The notes beneath the pieces are model-generated. The model was given only the letters and a program-made list of their open reading frames with translations. It was not told where the DNA came from and ran no database searches. Of a stretch of 60,042 nucleotides of DNA, positions 5,554-59,072 are shown one piece after another. The stretch comes from Escherichia phage Greed. The translations under genes were made by a program, and so were the position numbers. The DNA lies in the sequence record KX534337; one strand, given 5' to 3'. Position 1 is the first letter of the stretch; the number at the start of each line of letters is the position of its first letter.

Positions 5554-7890
5554 TTATTTGCTTAAGTCTTTGAAAACACTCTCAATTGACTCGTCTATAT
5601 ACCATCCCAACCCCCTGAAATTACGCTTCAATGCATCCTCACGCGTAACCGGAACAAGCGCGCCCATGTCTACAAGTTGTTTGATAGTGAGGTCTGTTGC
5701 CGTACCTGCTCCCATCCTGTGATTCTTGAATGCTGCTAACCCGTAGGTTCTGCGTGTGATAGTTGCCTTCGGAATAATACCGTCAACTCGCAGCTCCTTA
5801 CGGTCACATGCAATTTTACCGCCAAGATAGTCTTTGCAAACCTGACAGATAGCCTTCACACGCGTTTCATCATCACCACCGATAGTACCTTTTTCCCATG
5901 CGTTGATCATAATGTCCTGTCCATGCGTGACAAAATCTACCGCCCATTGCATGTGATTGGGTTGAACGACAGGATTGATCCAGTTTTCCCCCACTGCTAA
6001 CAGGGATGCAAGACGCAGAGCTTTAAGGTGGGCACGGTTCCACGGCTGACGGATAGCTTCGTCTTTAGTTGCGTTAATGTGTTCATCACATAACAAGTTA
6101 AACTCCCGTTCAATCCTTTCCGCTTCAGGGCTTAACTGGACGGTAACGGTCTGGAACTTCGCCATTGTCACTAACGTGTGGTTAACGAGATGGCACACCA
6201 TGTCCTTTAATTGCTGAGGCATTGTGATTTCAGGATTCTCGTTTGCAGGAACTCGATCCCCTTCATATTGCACAATGTGGAAACGGGACAAGAAACCGTC
6301 TTCCATCATTTCACGTGTTAACGCTTCAAAGAATGTGTCCGGTGTTGTTTCGCCCAAAACGCTGAACGCCACCCCTTCCATTGTCTTGGTATTATTAGCC
6401 TTATCAGAATATCCAATACCGCCAACAACATCCATCGCACCAGATTTTTGATACACATCTGTAATAGTTTGCTTCAAGGTGTAGTTCGCAGTGCCTGGCT
6501 GAGCTGTCGCCATACCTTTAATGGTTTTACCAAACTCACCGTTAATATTCACAAACGAAGTATGATCCGCAAAACTTTTACGCAAGGCAGGACCGGAAGC
6601 ATAGTTAGTCATGTCTACAAATTCATGCACTTGCGGTAATTGCTCGCCTACTTGCTTACAGATATAACTGGGCCCAGCGTGAAGCATTTCTTTACCCACA
6701 CCTGATCGGGCAATAAGGACAAAGTAACCGTTCAGCCCTGTGTTGGTGATAGTATTCCACACCTTGCCACATACGCCGGATAAGAATGCTAAAGATGCAG
6801 TGATTGCAATTTCTTTCACCGGACGCTGCGATGCTTTGTAGATATACTTCGCAAGCTCACCAGCAAGTCCCGGCGGCCATTCAATAGCTGTTGCATCAAT
6901 GGACGTGCTTTCTGCAACTACTATTTCACCGGAAGGGCTGACTGTGGTTACAGGCATTTCCGTTACCTGCTGCATTGCACTGTGTGCGGCTTGCATACGG
7001 GCAGCGTAATCCCGCGCCAGCGCCGCTACGTTTTCCTGGGCAATACGCTCACGCTCCATGCGACCGCGACACATACGCAAACAACGGTCAATATGAACAT
7101 TGTTCTTATTAGCCTTTTCACGTTTGCCCAGTGCACTATAACGGAACAGACGACGACATTGCTCATTACTTTCTGTGTAAAATGCATACATGGAAATAAG
7201 GGCAAGGTCTGCTTCAGACTGGGAAGGGAATCCCATTTCAACCCATTCACCATTGAAGAGGCGTGCATACTTATCGCCGTTGTCCGCTTCAAGTGCACGC
7301 TGGTGAATAGTTGCATCGTCTTCTACCGGATCTTTTTCTACCAGTTCGATCTCATATGTCTTGCGCTGAAGATCAATTTCATTCACAAGCATAGTAAGAT
7401 AATGATCACGTTCTGCAACTGGTTTGTTATAGACAGGATTACCCGTGCAGATAATAAAACGCTCCTGACTATAAACCTCGACACCATCACGTCGGCGACC
7501 TTTACCGATGTTCCCTCTTAACCACAGGTGGACGCCCAAGCCTGAGCGACTTACTTCGGTGTAAGTATCGAACGCGGTCATGATCTGTTCAAAGCGGCGC
7601 AACTGTTCCGGCGTCGTGTGCTTCTTGGGATCAGGTTCATTGGTTGCGTTCTTCACATCCAGGTCGATGCAGGTGAACGGGTCTTGCGCAGTAAGCACGA
7701 AGCCAATATAAGGTTTGTTGAAATGAGCGGCGCAACCTTTAGCAGATTCAAACGTCATAAGCATATCCGGATCGGTAACGTCCGCCGCCATCAAACGCCC
7801 GATATCGTTGTCCCATACAAGAGGCTTTTTATCCGCATCGGCGACCGCCCATTGTGGGAAACCTTTAATTTCAGCGGGAAACAGTTCCAT
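5554..7890 (-). CDS. DNA primase-polymerase/helicase (prim-pol N-terminus, D5/P4-like NTPase C-terminus)
   Basis: 778 aa; N-terminal archaeo-eukaryotic-primase-like motif GLGVHLWLRG; central P-loop-like ARSGVGKE; large size and position typical of phage primase-helicases. Confidence 0.65.
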   Translation of the reverse strand: MELFPAEIKGFPQWAVADADKKPLVWDNDIGRLMAADVTDPDMLMTFESAKGCAAHFNKPYIGFVLTAQDPFTCIDLDVKNATNEPDPKKHTTPEQLRRFEQIMTAFDTYTEVSRSGLGVHLWLRGNIGKGRRRDGVEVYSQERFIICTGNPVYNKPVAERDHYLTMLVNEIDLQRKTYEIELVEKDPVEDDATIHQRALEADNGDKYARLFNGEWVEMGFPSQSEADLALISMYAFYTESNEQCRRLFRYSALGKREKANKNNVHIDRCLRMCRGRMERERIAQENVAALARDYAARMQAAHSAMQQVTEMPVTTVSPSGEIVVAESTSIDATAIEWPPGLAGELAKYIYKASQRPVKEIAITASLAFLSGVCGKVWNTITNTGLNGYFVLIARSGVGKEMLHAGPSYICKQVGEQLPQVHEFVDMTNYASGPALRKSFADHTSFVNINGEFGKTIKGMATAQPGTANYTLKQTITDVYQKSGAMDVVGGIGYSDKANNTKTMEGVAFSVLGETTPDTFFEALTREMMEDGFLSRFHIVQYEGDRVPANENPEITMPQQLKDMVCHLVNHTLVTMAKFQTVTVQLSPEAERIEREFNLLCDEHINATKDEAIRQPWNRAHLKALRLASLLAVGENWINPVVQPNHMQWAVDFVTHGQDIMINAWEKGTIGGDDETRVKAICQVCKDYLGGKIACDRKELRVDGIIPKATITRRTYGLAAFKNHRMGAGTATDLTIKQLVDMGALVPVTREDALKRNFRGLGWYIDESIESVFKDLSK

Positions 7891-7896
7891 ATTTAA

Positions 7897-8100
7897 TTAA
7901 GACCTCCGACGCTTATCGCCTTGCATCTTTTCCAGGACGGGTTCTGCTAATGAACGTTTATAGATGTACACGCTACCGATTTTAATAGCGCCGGGAATGC
8001 ATTCGCGCATTCTGGAGAGCTTAAATTTTGAAATACCGAACTGGTTTTCAATTTCGGTAGTTGTTATATAGTTGTGATTAAATTCTTCGACGTGGGTCAT
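7897..8100 (-). CDS. Small HTH DNA-binding protein (AlpA/excisionase-like)
   Basis: 67 aa; ITTTEIENQFGISKFKLSRM resembles a helix-turn-helix; basic C-terminus. Confidence 0.4.
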   Translation of the reverse strand: MTHVEEFNHNYITTTEIENQFGISKFKLSRMRECIPGAIKIGSVYIYKRSLAEPVLEKMQGDKRRRS

Positions 8101-8161
8101 AGCTCCTCCTTTGTCCGCACACTATACACAGATAAGAGGAGCCATTGCAATGCGTTTTGCG

Positions 8162-8908
8162 TTACAGGATATGGGGGCAATAATATTTATCCTTAACAAA
8201 CTGAAAAACTTCTTCAGGTGTGCGGTCATTACGAAGTTCAATCATATGATTGTCCAGCCATGCTAAACTCTCCTCAGCCTTATCTCTATTATTAAAGTGC
8301 AATAGCTTTGAAGGTGTATCGCCAGGAAGGGTAACTTCAATACAAAATGAACCTGTTTCTAAATGCGTTATGTTGCAAGTCGGCCAAACGCCGCGGTTTT
8401 CCCATACAGAAGGCGCATCCTCAAATCTACATGAGCTATACCATTTATTGCGAAGAGATGTGATCTCCTTACTTGTTAACGGGGCGCCCTTAACCCTTTC
8501 ATGCTCCTCCAGCCAGGCTTTAAATTTTGGGTTAGGTTTGCGCCCCGGCTTCCCTCCTTTCGCCTTTGCGCTTTCTTTAAACGCTTGCTCGTATGGGTCT
8601 GATCCCTTGCCCATGTGGTAATTGAATTTGCCCGTATAGCTGCGAAGCTCTTTGGCGTCCAGTTCATGTCCCAGCTTATCGCTCACCCATGCAAGGAAAG
8701 CTTCCCGCTCTGCATCCAGCTTTCCCGCTTTCGGTCTTACAGATTTTTTAACTGGCTGCTCCACATCCTCGTTGAAGTAATCTTCCACCATAGCAAGCGC
8801 CTGTGATTTGGTTGGTGCACCACGCAACCGTGAGCACGCTTGCACAACCCAAGCCGCGAAGCACATATCCTTAACCACAGTCTTTGAGGTAATAATTTCT
8901 TCACTCAT
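8162..8908 (-). CDS. Hypothetical protein (248 aa)
   Basis: Long ORF with no recognised motif. Confidence 0.5.
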   Translation of the reverse strand: MSEEIITSKTVVKDMCFAAWVVQACSRLRGAPTKSQALAMVEDYFNEDVEQPVKKSVRPKAGKLDAEREAFLAWVSDKLGHELDAKELRSYTGKFNYHMGKGSDPYEQAFKESAKAKGGKPGRKPNPKFKAWLEEHERVKGAPLTSKEITSLRNKWYSSCRFEDAPSVWENRGVWPTCNITHLETGSFCIEVTLPGDTPSKLLHFNNRDKAEESLAWLDNHMIELRNDRTPEEVFQFVKDKYYCPHIL

Positions 8909-8989
8909 AATCCACCTATACGCGTAGAAAGAAAGTTAATCATATAACAAAGTTTTTGTAATCGCAAAACCTTCGCAAAACTTTGTCTT

Positions 8990-9260
8990 TCCTGCATTAT
9001 ATTAAACGATAGTGCTAGTGGCCAGCATAGTGGCATCACCGCTTATAGTGCGCCGTTACTGGCTTTGCTATAGTGAGCCACTATACGCTCACTATACACT
9101 AATAACTAATTTTATTTTATTTAGTGGTAATAAAGTTTTGGGGTTTTGGGGGAGACCCCTATATATCCCGGAAAAAACAAAGAAATAGTAGTAGTAGTGA
9201 AAAACATAGTGAAATGCCACTATCTCACTATCACTACTAATTTAGTGTAAATCATGGGGG
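8990..9260. repeat. Iteron-like cluster of ATAGTG/CACTAT repeats
   Basis: At least 12 copies of (C/T)ATAGTG or its complement CACTAT within about 270 bp of non-coding DNA. Confidence 0.55.
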
Positions 9261-9299
9261 TGTCTATGTACCAAAAACCTAAAACTTTCAGTCAACAGA

Positions 9300-9420
9300 C
9301 TAAAAACGGATAGAAACTAAAAGTTAATAAGTAATACCATAAATATATATAAAATAAGGATTTATTAATAATGTATATAGTACCTATTGGTATTATTTGA
9401 ATGTTTTTGGGTCTGCAACA
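9300..9420. promoter_or_regulatory. AT-rich tract adjacent to the iterons (possible DNA unwinding element)
   Basis: About 120 bp of high A+T content (for example AAATATATATAAAATAAGGATTTATTAATAATGTATATAG) with no ORF. Confidence 0.35.
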
Positions 9421-9612
9421 AAAAGTCGCAAAACTCACAAAACCTGAACGGATGCAGATCAAAAACGAGAAGTCAAGTGCTTTTGAGGGAAATTTATTGA
9501 ACTATTGTGATCGGAAGGTATATCAAGCTATAATGCGCTTAATCGCGGGATATTGGAGGAGGACTTTATTGCGCGGTTGACCGGACCAGTAGGAGGGCTG
9601 GCCCGGAGTAGT

Positions 9613-9945
9613 TTAGAGCTGTACAGGTATGAAGTGGGCTAATGTGTCGTCGGACATGATACCCGACAATTTTTCGCTTACCCATTCGGACCAAATGCTA
9701 TCCGGTTCCTGGCGGTGCACAAACCAGATTTCGGATGTGCCTTCTTTGCGCATCGGCTGCACTTCTACAAGGAACTTGTCCTGCATAAGGCGGGTGAAGC
9801 ATACGCTAGTCATTGGAACTGGCTTTTCGTGTTTATTGTAATAAGGAGTCAGTAATTTATTTCCGAAGTTGGCAACTTCATAAACTGTTCCTTTGCGAAG
9901 ACCTCTGATGTCCGTGTAAGAGCGGATAAATGTTTTCATGTTCAC
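9613..9945 (-). CDS. Hypothetical protein (110 aa)
   Basis: ORF with RBS-like GGAG upstream; no motif. Confidence 0.45.
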   Translation of the reverse strand: MNMKTFIRSYTDIRGLRKGTVYEVANFGNKLLTPYYNKHEKPVPMTSVCFTRLMQDKFLVEVQPMRKEGTSEIWFVHRQEPDSIWSEWVSEKLSGIMSDDTLAHFIPVQL

Positions 9946-9988
9946 TCCTAGGCTCCCGCAGAAGCCCGTTGGTTGATGTGGTTATAGA

Positions 9989-10648
9989 TTATGCGTCCAG
10001 TCCGTTGTATTTGCGCCAAGCGTAGAACTGAATGGCGACCGTTGTCCCGTTGTAAGAAGGCATTGCAGCTTTCATTTCTTTCAGCTCCGGCGTGCGGCCA
10101 AGTTCAGCTAAAAGTTTGTCGCCCATTGCCCACACTTCGGCGGTTTTTCCTTTCAGAGGCTTGCGAGCGCCATTTTTGAAATCACAGCGAGCAGCTTTTG
10201 CATCCTGTTTTGGCGCGGCAGCTTTTGGCTCTTCAATTTTGATTTCAGAAACCTGCGTGGCAGCTTTTGCATGTTTCATATCTTTCTCTTCCTCCTGCTC
10301 CAGAGCTTCGAGGCAGCTTTTGACAATTTCCGGATTTACCATCGGGCGCAGTACCGAGACGCTGGCAGCTGGCGCGGCGGTCGGTGCCGGTACTTTCTGC
10401 TCCGGCTGCTGCGCTTTTTTATGGTCGCGCAGCACCTGAAGCACTTCCTTCTCGACGATGTAAAAACCGATCTCGTCCTGATGGATTAACTGTTCGTGTG
10501 CGTCGCGTGCAACCTGGCCCCAGCGAGTTTTGAGGGCGCGGCGTGCATTGGTCTTCATGGTGTAACGCATTTTGTCCTGTTCGCGGTGAGTTACTTTAGA
10601 CATGGTATAGCTCCTTTCGTTAATATTAGTTTGCTTATTACTGCCCAC
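9989..10648 (-). CDS. Ala/Lys/Glu-rich protein with conserved C-terminal domain (paralog of 53058..53885)
   Basis: 219 aa (alternative start at 10603); central KAAAP-rich low-complexity region; C-terminus VWAMGDKLLAELG...YAWRKYNGL aligns with AWALMDQISATLG...YARWKKFNGV of 53058..53885. Confidence 0.5.
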   Translation of the reverse strand: MGSNKQTNINERSYTMSKVTHREQDKMRYTMKTNARRALKTRWGQVARDAHEQLIHQDEIGFYIVEKEVLQVLRDHKKAQQPEQKVPAPTAAPAASVSVLRPMVNPEIVKSCLEALEQEEEKDMKHAKAATQVSEIKIEEPKAAAPKQDAKAARCDFKNGARKPLKGKTAEVWAMGDKLLAELGRTPELKEMKAAMPSYNGTTVAIQFYAWRKYNGLDA

Positions 10649-10676
10649 CGTAATGATGAGCAGTGTATAAGAAAAC

Positions 10677-10925
10677 TTATTGCACGATTGCTACGAAATC
10701 GGCGGTTGCGATATCCATGCTTGCGAAAGCAACGATGCCATAGTCGGTGTCGTTTTCGGCGTTAAACGCTTTGAGGAACTGCTGTACCGCTGCTTTATGG
10801 TTAAGCGTTACGTCGATAGCATAGTCCCAGCTATAGACTTTGCGCTTGCCAAAACCTTTAACTGCAATGCGTGCGCTTTTGGTGTTAGTTGGTGCCAAAA
10901 ATTTGGTGACGATAGAAGTAGCCAT
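10677..10925 (-). CDS. Hypothetical protein (82 aa), first gene of the leftward arm
   Basis: ORF with GAGGA RBS; immediately downstream of a promoter-like element. Confidence 0.45.
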   Translation of the reverse strand: MATSIVTKFLAPTNTKSARIAVKGFGKRKVYSWDYAIDVTLNHKAAVQQFLKAFNAENDTDYGIVAFASMDIATADFVAIVQ

Positions 10926-10954
10926 GATGTAATCCTCGTTTGTTTAAGTTGACT

Positions 10955-10984
10955 TATTATTGCCCAGTCAGATCAACTAGGCAA
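10955..10984 (-). promoter_or_regulatory. Putative leftward sigma70-like promoter
   Basis: Minus-strand TTGCCT, 17-bp spacer (contains GATCTGACT), AATAAT, about 25 nt upstream of the 10925 start. Confidence 0.35.
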
Positions 10985-11349
10985 GATATAAATCACTTAA
11001 TTTGTACTAAATCGTATTCCTTGTAAATGTCGCTAATGTACATATCGAACTGACCCATTAAGAAGATTTCGGCCTCCTCCCAGCTTGGGCAGATACATAA
11101 CCAGCTATTTTACCGGACGCGAGTTCCACTAATTTGAATTCCATGATGCAACCCTTAATGTGGTTAAGCAGTATTGCTTTGTTGAAGTAATAATAGCCTT
11201 GCATCGTGATATTGAATAGGCCAAAAGTGCTCTTTTAGAATTGTTTTGCATCTAGTGAAAAATACGCTTGCCCTGCATGTTTAGCACTAAGGGCCTAACT
11301 AACATCACATTATCTGGAGTATTCGCACGGGCACACACATGCTTATAAG

Positions 11350-11440
11350 GTGTGCCGGATCGACCAGGGGCATCCGGGTCCTGCGTGTGCGGAACCTACC
11401 AGGTGGGAGCAGCTCCCGCGTGTGCCGGAAATACCAGGGG
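11350..11440. repeat. Three imperfect GC-rich direct repeats (about 35-bp period)
   Basis: GTGTGCCGGATCGACCAGGGG (11350), GTGTGCGGAACCTACCAGGTGG (11385), GTGTGCCGGAAATACCAGGGG (11420); an inverted arm GGCACACAC lies just upstream. Confidence 0.6.
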
Positions 11441-11493
11441 CGCGCGAGCCCATGCACTTTACAAAATATTTTTATAAAAAGTGCAAAAAGGTG

Positions 11494-11522
11494 TAGACAC
11501 ATGATCGGTCTAGCACTACTAT
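11494..11522 (+). promoter_or_regulatory. Putative rightward promoter (TAGACA, 17 bp, TACTAT)
   Basis: -35 TAGACA, spacer containing CATGATCGGTCT, -10 TACTAT; a near-identical element recurs at 12337..12365. Confidence 0.4.
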
Positions 11523-11573
11523 ATACACATACCGCAAGGGTACTACAAATCAACTAATTTACGGGGGTACAAA

Positions 11574-11837
11574 ATGGTCCGCATCCTGGAACGTTATAAA
11601 AACGAAGCTACTGGCGCTATTGCATTCAAACGTATGTTAGTAAAACAAATCGACGGTTTATTCCGTGTTGTTAAAGAAGTCGATTACGGCAACGGCGCAG
11701 GGGTAAGCACCACTATCGTCCCGGGCATTAAAGCGTATAAAACTTTAAAAGGCGCCGAGAAAGCCTTAGCCGCCTGGAAACCTGCTCGTTATCAAATGTC
11801 CCGTGTCGAAGGGCTTATGCAGGAAGGTAAGATCTAA
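11574..11837 (+). CDS. Hypothetical protein (87 aa), first gene of the rightward arm
   Basis: ATG preceded by ACGGGGGTACAAA; the same leader/RBS is found upstream of 12399. Confidence 0.5.
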   Translation: MVRILERYKNEATGAIAFKRMLVKQIDGLFRVVKEVDYGNGAGVSTTIVPGIKAYKTLKGAEKALAAWKPARYQMSRVEGLMQEGKI

Positions 11838-11905
11838 GTTTGTTTATACAATGGGCATTAATACAGTGCCCATTAATAAGCTAACTAATCATATCGAGGT
11901 ATATT

Positions 11906-12190
11906 ATGTCCATCGTCACTATGTCGTTCTTCGACCATTGCAATAACGAAAAACAAATTATCGTGAACCTGCAAAAAGGATCTGTTGTCGCACGCAATGC
12001 TAACCGCCAATGCATCGCGCTAACCGATTTTGCTTTCCGCCTTAACGTGGACAACACCACCGCCAAAAATATCGTTCACGATACAGCGTTGGAAGCTGCT
12101 CACGCTGCGAAGGATAAAGGTATCCGCGACGCACGCAAAATCATGCACAAGGCGCTCGGCATCACGTTCTTCGTTGGGATTAAGGGGTAA
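11906..12190 (+). CDS. Hypothetical protein (94 aa)
   Basis: GAGGT RBS 8 nt upstream of ATG. Confidence 0.5.
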   Translation: MSIVTMSFFDHCNNEKQIIVNLQKGSVVARNANRQCIALTDFAFRLNVDNTTAKNIVHDTALEAAHAAKDKGIRDARKIMHKALGITFFVGIKG

Positions 12191-12195
12191 CTACT

Positions 12196-12339
12196 ATGTC
12201 ACGCAAATACACGCTTACACGCGCACAGCACGCGTTATTATTGCAGGTTATGCGCATGGAGTACGAAGAGACTACATGGGCGCAGGCTATGCAGACAGGG
12301 CGCGAGTTCTACGCGCAACTAATAGCACAAAATGCCTAG
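12196..12339 (+). CDS. Possible small protein (47 aa)
   Basis: ATG 5 nt after the upstream stop with AAGGGG RBS; open to TAG at 12337; below the ORF-track length cutoff. Confidence 0.3.
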   Translation: MSRKYTLTRAQHALLLQVMRMEYEETTWAQAMQTGREFYAQLIAQNA

Positions 12340-12365
12340 ACAACATGATCGGTCTGGTGGATACT
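12337..12365 (+). promoter_or_regulatory. Second copy of the TAGACA/CATGATCGGTCT promoter-like element
   Basis: TAGACA, 17-bp spacer with CATGATCGGTCT, GATACT; followed by the conserved ACGGGGGTAAACAAA leader before the 12399 start. Confidence 0.4.
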
Positions 12366-12398
12366 ACACACATCAACCAAACAACGGGGGTAAACAAA

Positions 12399-12626
12399 AT
12401 GCGTAGTTTCAAATGTGTAAGCGTAAATGCTACTGGTAACGGTCTGTTCACGGCAGGTAATGTATATGACTTCAACATGGAAAGTTATAAAGACACAACG
12501 CTTACAGGTGTAATGTTCGGTGGCGCTCGTGTCGTTCGCTGCCATTTAAACAAGAACACGGAAAATAAATATACCCTTATCAGTCGCTACACGGGCGAGC
12601 CGTTAGCTGTGTTCCATGCAGCTTAA
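12399..12626 (+). CDS. Hypothetical protein (75 aa; track ORF starts at 12030)
   Basis: ATG at 12399 has the conserved leader/RBS shared with 11574; the longer upstream extension overlaps other genes and lacks an RBS. Confidence 0.45.
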   Translation: MRSFKCVSVNATGNGLFTAGNVYDFNMESYKDTTLTGVMFGGARVVRCHLNKNTENKYTLISRYTGEPLAVFHAA

Positions 12627-12702
12627 GCTATAACGCACACAGCGCCGCGCTAGTGAGCTAATGTACATAGGTAATGGTAATGCATTAGCTCGGGCGAAAC
12701 AG

Positions 12703-12750
12703 GCGCACAGCGTCGCGCACAGCTCGCACAGCGCACACAGACCCACGCAG
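12703..12750. repeat. Tandem GCGCACAGC-like repeats in a 430-bp non-coding region
   Basis: GCGCACAGC, GCGCACAGC, GCACAGC, GCACACAG in tandem; strongly C+A-rich on the plus strand. Confidence 0.45.
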
Positions 12751-13060
12751 GCCCAGCCGCGCAACCCGACCCATCCTTTTCCAGGTACTTGGATCGCTGG
12801 GGCGTGCCCTGTCTATCCTGATAGTAAGTCCTTGCCTAAATCTCACCTGTCACATCCCTATCCACCTACATCCATGACCCCACCTACCTTCTTTTTGAAT
12901 ATATTGCGCTCATCCTTTCTAAATATATGGATTTTGGTAGTAAATTCTGAGTCGTCAACGTATAATTCGTCTTGTAGCTGCTCCATAGCTACCATCTTTA
13001 AGCGGATGCAACCAATTTCTATCAATTCACACCTGTTTTTAGAGCATCAAGGAGGTATTT

Positions 13061-18688: not shown

Positions 18689-19246
18689 ATGAACGGGGCA
18701 AGTCAAGAGCAATATGATCCTGACTGGACGAATTACATCCAGTATGCAAATAGCTTGTCCGCTGAAGAGATGGCAATACGTGACAAAGTTGTTGCTGAGT
18801 ACATGTTCGACTACAATTGGACTAACGCTTGCATGAGATGCGGGTTCAATGCTATGTTTGCACAGGAGCTTGGCCAACGCTTTGCCACGGACTGTTATGT
18901 TCGATGGAAGCTCAAGGAGATTGAAAGATCCCGTGTTCAACGTACTTCTGAGCAAGCTAACATTGAAGCAGACCTTGAGCGTCAGCATATCATTGAAGCA
19001 TTAAAACGTGAAGCTCATTATACAGGACCGGGATCTTCTCAAGCTGCTAGAGTCGCCGCATTGGGCAAGCTTGCACAAATTTATGATTTGGATGCTCCCA
19101 AGAAGGCTAAGATTGATGTTACTAACAGAGGCGGCGTAATGATAGTCCCTGCTGTAGCAAATATTGACGAATGGGAAAAAACTGCATCCGAGTCTCAACA
19201 ACGACTAGTTAAAGAGACTGAAGATGGAGCTAAACCGACAATCTGA
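18689..19246 (+). CDS. terS: Putative terminase small subunit
   Basis: 185 aa ORF immediately upstream of and overlapping the large terminase; assignment by position. Confidence 0.45.
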   Translation: MNGASQEQYDPDWTNYIQYANSLSAEEMAIRDKVVAEYMFDYNWTNACMRCGFNAMFAQELGQRFATDCYVRWKLKEIERSRVQRTSEQANIEADLERQHIIEALKREAHYTGPGSSQAARVAALGKLAQIYDLDAPKKAKIDVTNRGGVMIVPAVANIDEWEKTASESQQRLVKETEDGAKPTI

Positions 19247-20783
19247 TAACATGCCGCGAGTCGTCTGGAAACCACATCCAGGTTCACAGACACTCGCTCT
19301 ATCCTGCCCCGCTGATATTATCCTATACCACGGAACTCGCGGTCCTGGAAAAACGGACTGCCAGCTTATGCGTTTCCGTAAGAACGTTGGCGTAGGGTAC
19401 GGTAAATTTTGGAAGGGTATTATATTCGACCGTGAATATAAAAACCTTGATGACCTTGTAACTAAATCCCAGCGTTGGTTTCCTGAATTTAAAGACGGGG
19501 CTAAATTCCTTAGCTCTAAGTCTGATTATAAATGGGTTTGGCCTACAGGTGAAGAGCTATTGTTCCGCGTTGCTTGTAAAGAAAAGGATTACTGGTCTTA
19601 TCACGGTCACGAATACCCATTTATCGGATGGAACGAATTAACAAAATATCCGGACGGGCGTTTGTTTGAAGCTATGATGTCCTGTAACCGTTCATCTTTC
19701 TTACCAGAAGATAACCCAATTATCAATCCAGATGGTACGGTCACATATTTACCGGATATCCCTCTGGAAGTGTTTGCCACCAGTAACCCGTTTGGTGCGG
19801 GGCATAACTGGGTTAAGAAACGCTTCATTGACGCTGCACCGATGGGTAAAATACTCAGGAAGACTACGCGAGTGTTTAACCCGAGGACGCAGAAAGACGA
19901 AGATGTGGTTACGACGCAATGCCATATCTTTGGTTCGTACCGTGAAAACAAAAACCTAAGTCCAAAATATATTGCAGAACTTATGTCTATCACAGACCCG
20001 AACAAGCGTGCTGCATGGTTGGGCGGGAGCTGGGATATTACATCCGGTGGTATGTTCGATGATCTGTGGCGTAGCACTGTTCACAAAGTACGACCATTCC
20101 CGATTCCAGCGAGTTGGAAGATTACACGTTCTTTCGACTGGGGTTCTTCAAAACCATTCTCTGTTGGTTGGTGGGCTATTAGTGATGGCTCTGATGTTGT
20201 GCGTGAAGATGGCACTACATTCTCCACGGTCCGCGGTGACCTGTTTAGGATTAACGAATGGTATGGGACCAACGGTAAAACAAATGAAGGTCTACATTTG
20301 CTGGACTCAGAAATTGCAAGCGGTATACTGGAGCGGGAATTGGCCTGGGGTATACACGATCGTGTAGTTCCTGGTCCTGCGGATAACTCCATTTGGGATC
20401 TGGAGAACAATAACTCCACCGCTGCAACAATGGCGAAGAAAATTCGTCTTAACGGGAAGTTATACAACGGTATACATTGGAAGCGCAGTGATAAGTCTGC
20501 TGGGTCACGTAAACGGGGCTGGCAGAAAATGCGTGAGTTTCTTAAAGCTGCACTGCGGGAAGATGCGAACGGTAAACCTTTGCCCGGTCCGCGCGAGAAT
20601 CCAGCAATGTACATTTTTGATAACTGCAACTATTTCTTTGAGCTGGTTCCAAGTCTACCTCGCGATGAAGTAGATCAGGACGACGTTGATACGGAATGTG
20701 AAGACCATATGGGTGATGAAGTTCGTTATATGGTTCTGGATCAAGCTGTTTATACAGGTGTTGGCAAAACTATCGGTATTTAA
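19224..20783 (+). CDS. terL: Terminase large subunit
   Basis: 519 aa; N-terminal Walker A YHGTRGPGKTD; size and position before the portal gene. Confidence 0.8.
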   Translation: MELNRQSDNMPRVVWKPHPGSQTLALSCPADIILYHGTRGPGKTDCQLMRFRKNVGVGYGKFWKGIIFDREYKNLDDLVTKSQRWFPEFKDGAKFLSSKSDYKWVWPTGEELLFRVACKEKDYWSYHGHEYPFIGWNELTKYPDGRLFEAMMSCNRSSFLPEDNPIINPDGTVTYLPDIPLEVFATSNPFGAGHNWVKKRFIDAAPMGKILRKTTRVFNPRTQKDEDVVTTQCHIFGSYRENKNLSPKYIAELMSITDPNKRAAWLGGSWDITSGGMFDDLWRSTVHKVRPFPIPASWKITRSFDWGSSKPFSVGWWAISDGSDVVREDGTTFSTVRGDLFRINEWYGTNGKTNEGLHLLDSEIASGILERELAWGIHDRVVPGPADNSIWDLENNNSTAATMAKKIRLNGKLYNGIHWKRSDKSAGSRKRGWQKMREFLKAALREDANGKPLPGPRENPAMYIFDNCNYFFELVPSLPRDEVDQDDVDTECEDHMGDEVRYMVLDQAVYTGVGKTIGI

Positions 20784-56540: not shown

Positions 56541-57445
56541 TCTTTCCCGTAATAATTAGCTACTTGATAGTTTTGACAACCAACTTTCTGTCCTTGCGTA
56601 TCCACTGCGACGGAATGGAAATTGCAATACCATGTTCCATCTTCTTTAGGTTCAAGGAATTGGCATGTGCGGCAGTTTACTTCCGGCATAGTTTTACGCC
56701 AGCATAGTGAGGAGTGATCGCACCATTTACATTCGAAGAAAGTGGAATCTTTAAATGCGCGGTCCGGAATATTTGTAGCAATAGCAATCTGCACACCACG
56801 ATCAATATACATGTCCGCGGTAACAGGATCAAACGGAATAATTTCTGCGTAAACTTCATCGTCATTCTTGTTTACAGCAAGATATAACGCTGCGCCAAGA
56901 CCTAGTTTTCGCATGTACACGTTCATCTGTACATAGTGCTCAGGTTTAGCTTCTTTGACACCTTTAGCTTTCAGCTTTTTAAAAGACTTATCGTTATGAG
57001 TCTTCATTTCGGTAAGCACAGGCATCCCAGGCTGCACGTCCGGACAACCTATAACCACACCATCGCAGGAACCGCCAAAGTGTCCGCCAGCTTCGCTGAT
57101 ACGGAACTGGTGTCCATTTTCGTCCTGCTGGTAAACCTGCATACCTGCCGCAAGCAGCATAGCAATGAAACGGGCTTCTTCCAGATGTCCGCGGTTAAAC
57201 AGTCGAAGCTGGCGCCCGTCAAACTCTTTGCGTGTAGCCCAGCGATATCCATAGAAAAGCTTGCGTGCGCATTGCTGCCCAATAAGGGAAGCGCCTAAGT
57301 GACTGCGGTTACCGCTTTCAGGGCGATAAGCGTCTTCAATTGTGGGAATGACTACGCCAAGATACTTACGGTAAGTCCCACCCTGATCTTTTTGCACACC
57401 GTCATTGATCGCTTGAAGTGTTTTTTCTGCAATATAAATAGCCAT
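56537..57445 (-). CDS. PD-(D/E)xK exonuclease (RecB/Cas4-like) with C-terminal Cys cluster
   Basis: 302 aa; GGSCDGVVIG...LTEMKTH (D/E-x-K core), EHYVQMNVYM (QhxxY-like), C-terminal Cys-rich region. Confidence 0.5.
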   Translation of the reverse strand: MAIYIAEKTLQAINDGVQKDQGGTYRKYLGVVIPTIEDAYRPESGNRSHLGASLIGQQCARKLFYGYRWATRKEFDGRQLRLFNRGHLEEARFIAMLLAAGMQVYQQDENGHQFRISEAGGHFGGSCDGVVIGCPDVQPGMPVLTEMKTHNDKSFKKLKAKGVKEAKPEHYVQMNVYMRKLGLGAALYLAVNKNDDEVYAEIIPFDPVTADMYIDRGVQIAIATNIPDRAFKDSTFFECKWCDHSSLCWRKTMPEVNCRTCQFLEPKEDGTWYCNFHSVAVDTQGQKVGCQNYQVANYYGKD

Positions 57446-57510
57446 TGGAATACCTTAGAAAAATAAGCCGTCTTTCGACGGCTTATGGACACTACAGAGG
57501 GAGGGTTATT

Positions 57511-58344
57511 TTACTGCTGCCACGGCGGGACTGCTGCTTGTGCCGGATGCGGTTCAGCTTGCTGCTGCGGCTGAGCTTGCTGCTGAGGTGCTGCTGCCTG
57601 GCCCGGCTGTGCTACCTGCTGCGCCCACGGCTGCTGTGGTGCTGCGTTTTGAGCAGGATTATCCCACGGTTGCGGTGCGGCATTCTGCCACGGTTGTGCT
57701 GCTGCGCCCTGCTGTGGTGCTGGTTGCTGCTGCACAGGCTGCTGAACTGGCTGCTGTTGCTGCACCGGAGCTTGCTGCTGTACAGGCGCTTGCTGTTGCT
57801 GAGCAAACGGGTTAGCTGCTGGTTGCTGTGGTGCTGCGCCCGGGAAAGCTGGCTGCTGAGCTGGCGCACCTGCACCGAACGGGTTAGCTACTGCCGCTTG
57901 AGCACCCATTGCTGGAGCACCTGCTTCTTTTTCTGCATACTTAACCGGATCGTTGATGTTAGCATAACCGTTAGGCTCGTTGCTGTCTTCATAACCTTCC
58001 TGAGAACGAACTTTCAGACGCAGGTTCAGCGGAATGTTATGCAGTTGAGCAGGAGTATCCCAGCGGATTACGCCAACCGCATGGGAAAGCGCGCCCAGTT
58101 GTTCGTATGCGATACGCACAGTATCTTCGTTGTCGTTGATAACGTTGTAACGAGCAAAGATTTTACGACCTTTAGCAAAACCATCAATGATGCTAAACGT
58201 TACCTGGATCGCCATACCGCCATTTTTGGTCGGTTTAAATTCAGATGCTTCAATTACTGCTTTATACCAACCTTTCGGCAATGCGCCGTAAGAAGGTGCT
58301 TGATAGCTGCTCGCGTCAAAGTGGAAATTAGTTGGCATAGTCAT
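57511..58344 (-). CDS. Putative single-stranded DNA-binding protein with Gln/Pro/Ala-rich C-terminal tail
   Basis: 277 aa; N-terminal 130 aa globular; C-terminal about 140 aa low-complexity Q/P/A repeats; sits in the recombination module. Confidence 0.45.
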   Translation of the reverse strand: MTMPTNFHFDASSYQAPSYGALPKGWYKAVIEASEFKPTKNGGMAIQVTFSIIDGFAKGRKIFARYNVINDNEDTVRIAYEQLGALSHAVGVIRWDTPAQLHNIPLNLRLKVRSQEGYEDSNEPNGYANINDPVKYAEKEAGAPAMGAQAAVANPFGAGAPAQQPAFPGAAPQQPAANPFAQQQQAPVQQQAPVQQQQPVQQPVQQQPAPQQGAAAQPWQNAAPQPWDNPAQNAAPQQPWAQQVAQPGQAAAPQQQAQPQQQAEPHPAQAAVPPWQQ

Positions 58345-59072
58345 TAGTTAATACCTTTCATTTTGTTGATAACAGAACCTAAGTGTGGGACTTCAACCGC
58401 ATCTAAACGTCCCGAACGATCCTTAGCGATTGTATTAAAGTCCGGTTGAGTTTGCAAGTAACGATATGAGTTACCTTGCTGATCCTTATTTACATTCAGA
58501 CGAAATACTTCGTCGAAGAAATAAGGGAGCATTTGTCCCAATTTGGACCCAGGCATAGATGGAGCATACGCGGTAACACCGGAGACTTCATCTTTGTCTT
58601 TGCCCATTTTAGCAGACATATAAACATGTTTGCCAGGAATATCGCGAAATTTACGGATCAGATCTTGCATCTTTTCAAGCAAAGTACCATAAGCTTGACG
58701 AGGATCTTTCGTTCCCTTTTTCGCGTTGTTTAAACATTGTTCAGCAATTTCGCTCAAGCTGTCAAGCGCAATAGAATCGAAATACTGCTGGTTAGCTGGA
58801 GTTACGCACCACTGATAAGCCGCTTCAACGTCTTCCAGACATTTCACTTCAATTACCGGAATATCGTAAACGATGGGCAAACCCATGTTACCATAAACAC
58901 GGTTAAGGTTTTCCGCTGCAATAGACAACAGACCGGATTCTGCGCTGATTAAAATTGGTTTAGGTAGTGTGGCTACAAGGCTGGTTTTACCCATACCTGC
59001 TTCACCGTAAACCAGAATTTTAACACCTGTGTCCTGCACAACTTGTGAAGACATTTTAATTTCAATGGCCAT
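58344..59072 (-). CDS. RecA-fold ATPase (Sak4-like recombination/annealing protein)
   Basis: 242 aa; Walker A VYGEAGMGKTSL; size and neighbourhood (SSB-like, nuclease) typical of phage Sak4-type ATPases. Confidence 0.5.
   Translation of the reverse strand: MAIEIKMSSQVVQDTGVKILVYGEAGMGKTSLVATLPKPILISAESGLLSIAAENLNRVYGNMGLPIVYDIPVIEVKCLEDVEAAYQWCVTPANQQYFDSIALDSLSEIAEQCLNNAKKGTKDPRQAYGTLLEKMQDLIRKFRDIPGKHVYMSAKMGKDKDEVSGVTAYAPSMPGSKLGQMLPYFFDEVFRLNVNKDQQGNSYRYLQTQPDFNTIAKDRSGRLDAVEVPHLGSVINKMKGIN

Follow-up and report, generated by a model that had tools for sequence, protein, structure and literature searches.

A probable replication origin at the head of the primase–helicase operon of Escherichia phage Greed, with two sets of short repeats that co-vary with two phage proteins

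What function is served by the 704-bp non-coding gap (8909–9612) that stands at the head of the minus-strand primase–helicase operon of Escherichia phage Greed? The window, by which we mean the whole stretch of DNA analyzed (KX534337; 60,042 bp), is a complete, circularly permuted Seuratvirus genome (Queuovirinae), from a group of coliphages whose DNA contains 7-deazaguanine. All of its genes from 146 to about 10,925 are on the minus strand; to the left of the gap, the operon consists, in this order, of open reading frames (ORFs) for a 248-residue protein, a 67-residue protein, and a 778-residue primase–helicase, and to the right follows the 3′ end of a 110-residue minus-strand gene. A first-pass annotation of the sequence had proposed a candidate replication origin in a gene-free gap of about 700 bp, located about 1 kb from the primase–helicase gene. 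This setting is borne out, in that the gap measures 704 bp and holds no conserved gene annotated in relatives except for a 44-residue ORF in two records, and 1.1 kb separates the first repeat from the start codon of the primase–helicase gene (7890), the 67- and 248-residue protein genes lying in between. From the comparisons described below, we consider that 8940–9450 is probably the Seuratvirus replication origin, of the kind known from staphylococcal pathogenicity islands (SaPIs) and P4, with an array of putative accessory-protein sites laid over the operon promoter.

The homologous gap was gathered from about 25 loci in GenBank phages, IMG/VR, metagenomes, and Logan assemblies, the IMG/VR scan contributing only two of them. 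Over 8000–10500, the window is 96.4% identical to Escherichia phage WildeMaa and 94–97% identical to SA80RD, CSP1, and SD04. The right half of the gap, from the AT-rich core onward (9272–9612), is conserved in all of these approximately 25 loci. In the left half, the layout is kept while the repeated word varies: two clusters (plus-strand and then minus-strand copies) are separated by a T-rich spacer ending in a run of C, and this two-cluster layout is maintained across three motif types.

In the window, the repeated word is ATAGTG and its complement CACTAT (motif 1). Exact ATAGTG starts on the plus strand at 9009, 9027, 9045, 9070, and 9206, and CACTAT, representing the minus-strand copies, at 9079, 9090, 9218, and 9226. 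The first-pass count of at least 12 copies of (C/T)ATAGTG or CACTAT is therefore too high when taken literally, eight such copies being present in addition to one GATAGTG, and is surpassed once degenerate copies are counted, with 15 TAGTG cores in 9010–9247. Genome-wide, the hexamer is unremarkable (35 copies on both strands; 29.6 expected), and 9 of the 35 fall within 9009–9231. Elsewhere in the genome, 271 bp contain 0.12 hexamers and 0.29 cores on average, and the best other window of this size has two hexamers or three cores. In 5000 first-order Markov simulations of 8990–9260, the hexamer reached a maximum of 3 copies (mean, 0.25), compared with the nine observed, and even if any hexamer was allowed as the repeat, only 0.03% of the simulations attained nine copies. 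The proposed enrichment thus holds against both enumeration and simulation.

The motif-1 copies, with cores of 5–7 bp, both orientations, and irregular spacing of 6–25 bp, form two clusters. Cluster A (9009–9101) has five TAGTG cores on the plus strand (9010, 9016, 9028, 9046, and 9071) followed by three on the minus strand (9079, 9090, and 9097), and includes a perfect inverted repeat of 10 nt (TATAGTGAGC/GCTCACTATA, 9069–9078 and 9087–9096). Cluster B (9185–9247) is composed of ATAGTAGTAGTAGTG (9185–9199), ATAGTG (9206), CACTAT (9218 and 9226), CACTAC (9232), and TTAGTG (9242), that is, plus-strand copies, then three minus-strand copies, and then one plus-strand copy. Between the clusters is a short AT-rich tract (9098–9133) with a single TTAGTG (9121–9126). 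Two further details of cluster A are recorded here. A non-motif element, CGCCGTTACTGGCTTTG, located between the copies at 9051–9067, is kept in all ATAGTG-type loci including the most diverged one (L013), and may be a site for some other factor. At 9084–9096, the sequence ATACGCTCACTATA resembles the T7 promoter core, ATACGACTCACTATA, less one base; because no phage RNA polymerase is found among the identified ORFs of the window, this is probably a chance product of two neighboring CACTATA copies.

To the right of cluster B lies the most A+T-rich stretch of the genome (9280–9420), a candidate unwinding element with a core conserved in all relatives. The A+T content is 83% over 9309–9408 and 79% over 9280–9399, and whether the genome is ranked by A+T content in windows of 60, 100, or 120 bp, the first place always falls within 9280–9420, so that the 120-bp AT-rich stretch initially noted after the repeats is real and a genome extreme. 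The global minimum of the cumulative G–C curve is also inside the region, at 9106, away from the gene-orientation switch near 11 kb. As for host-factor sites, the 720 bp examined contain a single DnaA box, with one mismatch, against a genome-wide rate of 2.7 per kb; the gap contains neither a match to the integration host factor consensus nor clustered GATC.

A second and less obvious repeated word, GTTTTG/CAAAAC (motif 2), which is absent from the first-pass annotation, occurs six times (8965, 8976, 9135, 9143, 9429, and 9438), where 0.37 copies are expected per 500 bp, and this is the densest cluster of the word in the genome. The copies are arranged in three pairs interleaved with the motif-1 clusters: one to the left of cluster A on the minus strand (8965–8981; TCGCAAAAC twice, reading CAAAAC on the plus strand), one on the plus strand in the spacer between clusters A and B (9135–9148; GTTTTG GG GTTTTG), and one beyond the AT-rich tract on the minus strand (9429–9443; TCGCAAAAC TCACAAAAC), opposite in orientation to the spacer pair. 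The latter two pairs bracket the AT-rich tract of 9280–9420, whereas motif 1 is found on one side of it only. The spacer pair is contained in an 18-nt imperfect inverted repeat, AAAGTTTTGGGGTTTTGG, whose partner is just past cluster B (about 9271–9288). An inverted repeat around cluster B is rejected as a universal feature, since it exceeded shuffled sequences only in the window and in KurtStettler.

The protein most likely to be related to motif 2 by its variation is the primase–helicase (5554–7890, minus strand), which has an NrS-1-like PrimPol N-terminus, an MCM-like AAA+ part (DUF3987), and a C-terminal α/β domain (about 674–778). It matches the Pfam families NrS1-1_pol-like_HBD and DUF3987, and its AlphaFold model, built with 63 homologues, has a mean predicted local distance difference test (pLDDT) score of 89. 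In Foldseek searches, the N-terminus resembled the NrS-1 primase–polymerase and the remainder MCM and ORC AAA+ proteins; phmmer matched NrS-1 and SaPI5 PriRep5 (7OLA, E = 7e-11), the alignment with 7OLA covering query residues 60–264, i.e., the primase region only. The last approximately 105 residues are basic (isoelectric point (pI), 9.3) and in the AlphaFold model follow the order helix–strand–helix–helix–strand–strand, suggestive of a winged-helix-like topology; the C-terminal fragment alone gave no matches as a query, and the full-length protein was used instead. The gene is a mosaic. Residues 1–280 are about 100% identical across Seuratviruses, and residues 281–778 exist in three alleles (T1, T2, and T3; T1 in the window) that are 59–68% identical over this part, dropping to 33–46% in the last 105 residues. 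Such a structure implies recombination at a fixed junction.

The motif-2 word follows these alleles: GTTTTG/CAAAAC is found with T1, GTTTA(T/C) with T2, and AATTTT(A/C) with T3, and word and C-terminal allele agree in every one of the 21 loci typed (19 loci plus SA126VB and Dru_SM1). The association is also present within the left halves of the gap, which are unalignable between clades of the 248-residue protein; there, the cognate word is 4- to 10-fold enriched in T1 and more weakly in T2 and T3, and the words of the other alleles do not exceed expectation. One haplotype, L033 (T3, lacking the 248-residue protein gene, with a GGAATAA array), was held out and examined only after the rule relating allele and word had been formulated. 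In it, AATTTT(A/C) occurs five times (1.1 expected; P = 0.008), and the T1 word is absent. Each of T1, T2, and T3 occurs with two or three motif-1 types, nine combinations being observed in all, and simple block linkage is unlikely given the interleaved positions of the two motifs. We therefore regard the helicase C-terminal domain as the candidate reader of motif 2, and motif 2 as a better candidate than motif 1 for the iterons of the helicase.

A resemblance of both words to primase template sites should also be mentioned. The template sites reported for the NrS-1 primase are 5′-GTG(A/G) and 5′-TTTGGTTA (PMC8718748), which are similar to ATAGTG(G/A) in 9009–9247 and GTTTTGG in 9135–9148. The link is doubtful, because phages of the CAjan type share this primase domain although their repeat lacks GTG, and the resemblance is a lead rather than an explanation.

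Which protein, then, might recognize motif 1? The primase–helicase is rejected for this role, since the enzymes of KurtStettler (ATAGTG) and CAjan (ATAGGG) are 98–100% identical in each 40-residue block, and the same degree of identity is seen between the enzyme of the window (ATAGTG) and that of Skure (GGAATAA). The 67-residue protein (7897–8100, minus strand; phrog_11967) is likewise rejected, since that of CAjan is identical to that of L014 and the words of the two differ; moreover, the L015 protein groups with those of ATAGTG phages, yet the L015 word is ATAGGG. By contrast, the word tracks the allele of the 248-residue protein, an orphan (8162–8908, minus strand; phrog_27223) that is thereby the best candidate reader of motif 1. 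At ATAGTG loci (WildeMaa, SA126VB, Dru_SM1, the KurtStettler group, and L013), this protein is 52–100% identical to that of the window. ATAGGG(T) is the word of CAjan, Seurat, slur01, and L015 (the CAjan and P0010 alleles being 44–45% identical to that of the window), and TAGGGGTA is that of L014 (allele P0009, 48% identical). GGAATAA, in six to eight copies at the same place, is the word of Skure, STP-SP5, L022, and L033, all of which are devoid of the 248-residue protein gene. Residues 51–130 of the protein are basic (pI, 9.9), with an identity of about 0.76 within the ATAGTG group and about 0.33 between groups. No relatives were found in Pfam, NCBIfam, or PDB, and a profile search of 1.84 billion representative proteins returned its own family only, which is confined to Seuratviruses (23 phage records in 11 clusters). 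Its gene adjoins the gap, and the motif-1 array clusters nowhere else in the genome; a single target region beside its own gene speaks against a general transcription factor.

Some observations on the neighboring 67-residue protein are added here. By eye, it resembles an excisionase/HTH_17-type DNA binder with a helix–turn–helix (YITTTEIENQFGISKFKLSRMR...IGSVYIYKR). The tail at its C-terminus, MQGDKRRRS, is restricted to phages with the 248-residue protein gene; Skure, STP-SP5, and yong3 have a different sequence in its place. In Skure (L008, 24919–25200), the phage inspected from among those without the 248-residue protein gene, an ORF of 93 residues (weak AP2-domain match, E = 2e-4) and an orphan ORF of 89 residues are located between the homologue of the 67-residue protein and the primase gene.

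Taken together, the unique motif cluster, the extreme AT-rich tract, the skew minimum at 9106, the position at the operon head, and the kinship of the encoded enzyme to self-loading initiator helicases make a replication origin the best supported reading of the gap. Of the origin as first described, with iterons and an unwinding element, the AT-rich tract and the repeat cluster agree with the data, and the classic iteron form does not. In the predicted course of initiation, the C-terminal domain of the primase–helicase would recognize the GTTTTG/CAAAAC pairs placed in opposite orientations around cluster B and the AT-rich tract; helicase hexamers would assemble at these pairs and melt 9309–9408 (83% A+T), and the PrimPol domain of the same enzyme would then prime synthesis, a course modeled on the self-loading SaPI Rep/PriRep helicases. 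The 248-residue protein would bind both clusters through their 15 TAGTG cores, where the arrays would probably bend or organize the origin DNA or aid recruitment of the helicase, as accessory origin-binding proteins do. Since cluster A overlaps the operon promoter, binding there would also autoregulate the operon for the 248-residue protein, the 67-residue protein, and the primase–helicase. Two predicted promoters that face outward, one at each edge (minus strand, 9024 to 8996; plus strand, 9505–9534), would add negative supercoiling to the AT-rich tract and favor unwinding between them. The repeats and their uniqueness in the genome, the AT-rich tract, the skew minimum, both patterns of co-variation, and the domain composition of the enzyme are observed; all of the events, from binding, melting, and priming to autoregulation and the start of replication at the gap, we infer from the arrangement of the sites and the comparisons above.

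A more specific proposal, which we put forward tentatively, is that the origin requires two keys, the 248-residue protein and the helicase C-terminal domain each reading its own set of repeats, so that the modules could reassort and give rise to orthogonal origins. It is suggested by the nine combinations in which the three alleles of the helicase and four or more types of site have been found. As part of this proposal, and with the same reserve, the 248-residue protein might be an origin-binding protein restricted to Seuratviruses and possessing an unrecognized DNA-binding fold.

Several observations weigh against the interpretation as an origin or soften its support. The G–C skew curve is nearly flat from 9,000 to 13,000, and its minimum is for this reason weak support. 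In the phylogenetic footprint, the motif-1 columns are only modestly more conserved than flanking columns (0.66 vs 0.60, p = 0.03). The motif-2 words are short and AT-rich, with signals of two to five copies against about one expected for T2 and T3, and co-variation of adjacent segments can partly stem from linkage. The Skure-type phages do without the 248-residue protein gene, which therefore cannot be universally essential. Beyond Seuratvirus, two more distant phages that encode the same primase family, the Nonagvirus JenP1 and Pantoea phage Vid5, lack a counterpart of the gap in front of their primase operons. Finally, SaPI origins are immediately downstream of rep, whereas the gap is upstream of the operon, with two genes between it and the start of the primase–helicase gene.

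The promoters at the left edge raise the question whether the gap might instead serve transcriptional control alone. The ATAGTG arrays would then be operators for the 248-residue protein acting as a repressor or timer of the operon, and possibly of the divergent plus-strand promoter, and replication would start elsewhere or proceed without a fixed origin (e.g., in a recombination-dependent manner). A sigma-70-type promoter of the operon is predicted at 8996–9024 on the minus strand (TGGCCA-17-TATAAT), and the first two motif-1 copies (9009–9021) cover its spacer and −35 element, as expected of an array of operators overlapping the promoter of the regulator's own gene. The promoter is also annotated in silico in relatives, among them phage SA80RD; an alternative minus-strand promoter is predicted from 8967 to 8939 (TTGCGA-17-TATGAT), with a −35 element overlapping the left motif-2 pair; the gene of the presumed regulator is the first one downstream, as in autoregulators; and the genome encodes recombination functions, which by the CAjan annotation comprise a Sak4-like annealing protein, an exonuclease, and RusA. 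However, an operator would need far fewer than 15 sites spread over 240 bp in two dyad-symmetric clusters, most of these sites being far from the promoter, a regulator without another genomic target would serve itself only, and the AT-rich tract, the skew minimum, and the helicase-linked motif 2 are left unexplained. Transcriptional control is moreover compatible with origin function and not exclusive of it, and control of transcription as the only role of the gap appears to us unlikely.

Another view accepts the origin but takes the ATAGTG arrays as dispensable, a mobile regulatory cassette that moves with the 248-residue protein gene, the primase–helicase being sufficient at the GTTTTG sites and the AT-rich tract. 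In agreement with this, Skure, STP-SP5, L022, and L033 keep the AT core and motif-2 sites in the absence of the gene, and SaPI Reps need no accessory factor (PMC9371898). The same phages, however, carry their own array of six to eight GGAATAA copies in the same place, as if some array were required, and the layout of plus-strand and then minus-strand copies in two clusters is kept across three motif types; we accordingly rate dispensable arrays as rather improbable. A packaging (pac/cos) site or a centromere-like site bound by the 248-residue protein, suggested by the short repeats in both orientations that also occur at terminase small-subunit and ParR/ParB sites, is very improbable, since the gap is not beside genome ends or terminase genes, the probable ones (judged by ORF size and position only) being at 18,689–20,783, about 9.5 kb off, since related records begin near the terminase region and not at the gap, and since this is a virulent siphovirus with no plasmid relatives and with no partition genes in the CAjan annotation.

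The remaining features of the gap and its surroundings bear less directly on the origin. A conserved, outward-facing sigma-70-type promoter is predicted at the right edge on the plus strand (9505–9534; TTGTGA-18-TATAAT), pointing at the 3′ end of the minus-strand gene. In the window, it is followed by about 70 nt comprising a 5′ hairpin (GCG-CTTAAT-CGC; relatives show compensatory variants), GGAGGAGGA, a mini-ORF (TTG-CGC-GGT-TGA), and another hairpin (9585–9607); L020 has a leader sequence of the same class. Dru_SM1 and STP-SP5 have a plus-strand ORF after this promoter, that of STP-SP5 being HNH-like in sequence, and in L014 an HNH_3 gene occupies the place. The segment 9505–9612 may thus be a remnant or landing pad of a homing endonuclease, or a small RNA. 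An Rfam scan of 8700–9900 gave one sub-threshold match only and hence no known RNA family. The deposited records of relatives show nothing in the gap except promoter and terminator marks made in silico and the 44-residue ORF, the latter in two genomes of one collection. This ORF (8905–9039, minus strand), which WildeMaa carries as bas23_0072 and for which KurtStettler has an annotated ORF at the corresponding position, overlaps both the promoter and the beginning of the repeats. No family matches it, no counterpart is annotated in SA126VB or CAjan, and it is probably not a gene. Both the 44-residue ORF and another of 59 residues in the gap were scanned against Pfam and PHROG with no match. The Hafnia phage yong3 has a looser version of the gap arrangement. 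Far from the gap, a dense GCAGCA/CAGCAG trinucleotide repeat (57300–57800; up to 15 copies per 300 bp) lies in the only 1-kb window with 55% G+C, and is situated inside overlapping long ORFs (57445–58347 on the plus strand and 57511–58344 on the minus strand).

The Seuratvirus comparative paper and the BASEL paper make no mention of an origin, and none has been described for Queuovirinae in the literature searched. An origin beside the primase–helicase gene might have been expected; the double co-variation and an orphan protein as the putative binder of one set of sites were not. Queuovirinae are in wide use through the BASEL collection, and both therapy and engineering have an interest in them. 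If the assignment is true, a defined origin would allow cloning of replicons, marker-frequency studies, and tests of the effect of DNA hypermodification on initiator binding. The matched pairs of proteins and sites found in nature would provide a ready experiment on the evolution of initiator specificity, and point to a new family of DNA-binding proteins.

The proposed origin is worth comparing with those of known replicons. Like iteron plasmids and the lambda O system, it has the initiator gene adjoining the repeats and an AT-rich element, with sites over its own promoter. However, those systems employ regular, direct iterons of 17–22 bp, DnaA boxes, and loading of the host DnaB, whereas a phage helicase–primase is present here and the motif-1 cores are only 5–7 bp long and grouped in two orientation-symmetric clusters. 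The term classic iteron used in the first-pass annotation is consequently apt for the adjacent AT-rich element and not for the repeats, which are not direct repeats of about 17–22 bp.

In function, the gap comes nearest to the origins of the SaPIs and of P4. SaPI Reps are self-loading helicases that bind and melt the origin without ATP, and the origins contain 6–12 iterons of five or six nucleotides that flank an AT-rich center, at least two on each side in opposite directions, and are read by the C-terminal winged helix of Rep (PMC9371898). In the gap, the repeats are equally short and of comparable number (six for motif 2, and nine hexamers or 15 cores for motif 1), and the opposed motif-2 pairs flank an AT-rich center at 9280–9420. 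Specificity in SaPIs is carried by the helicase C-terminal winged helix, with matched variation between elements; the co-variation of motif 2 with the C-terminal allele in every typed locus may point to a similar relation here. The fused primase–helicases are of similar size (797 residues in PriRep5 and 778 here). On the other hand, ATAGTG tracks the orphan protein and not the helicase, and the similarity to 7OLA is confined to the primase part, the helicase part being MCM-like in fold searches. The gap is thus not a strict member of the SaPI class, differing in its position and with homology detected in the primase part only. Its distinctive element is the additional, putatively accessory array linked to an orphan protein.

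The P4 α protein, of about 777 residues, combines a primase, a helicase, and a C-terminal origin-binding winged helix, and the P4 ori and crr contain octamer type I iterons in direct and inverted orientation, forming two clusters kilobases apart that are all read by one protein. The likeness to the phage Greed system consists in a primase–helicase fusion of similar size with a predicted C-terminal domain of the corresponding kind and in repeats of both orientations; the α primase is of the DnaG-like Toprim type, whereas that of the phage is an archaeo-eukaryotic primase (AEP/PrimPol). For the suggested division of labor between two proteins, the E1/E2 system of papillomaviruses offers a functional analogy. 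There, a helicase-initiator uses short inverted sites by an AT tract, and separate sites are occupied by a second, sequence-specific protein that also regulates transcription and helps to load the helicase. The analogy is to a eukaryotic virus with no homology to the 248-residue protein, and the numbers and layout of the sites differ. If confirmed, the arrangement in Seuratviruses would nevertheless represent a bacterial-virus counterpart of the E1/E2 logic.

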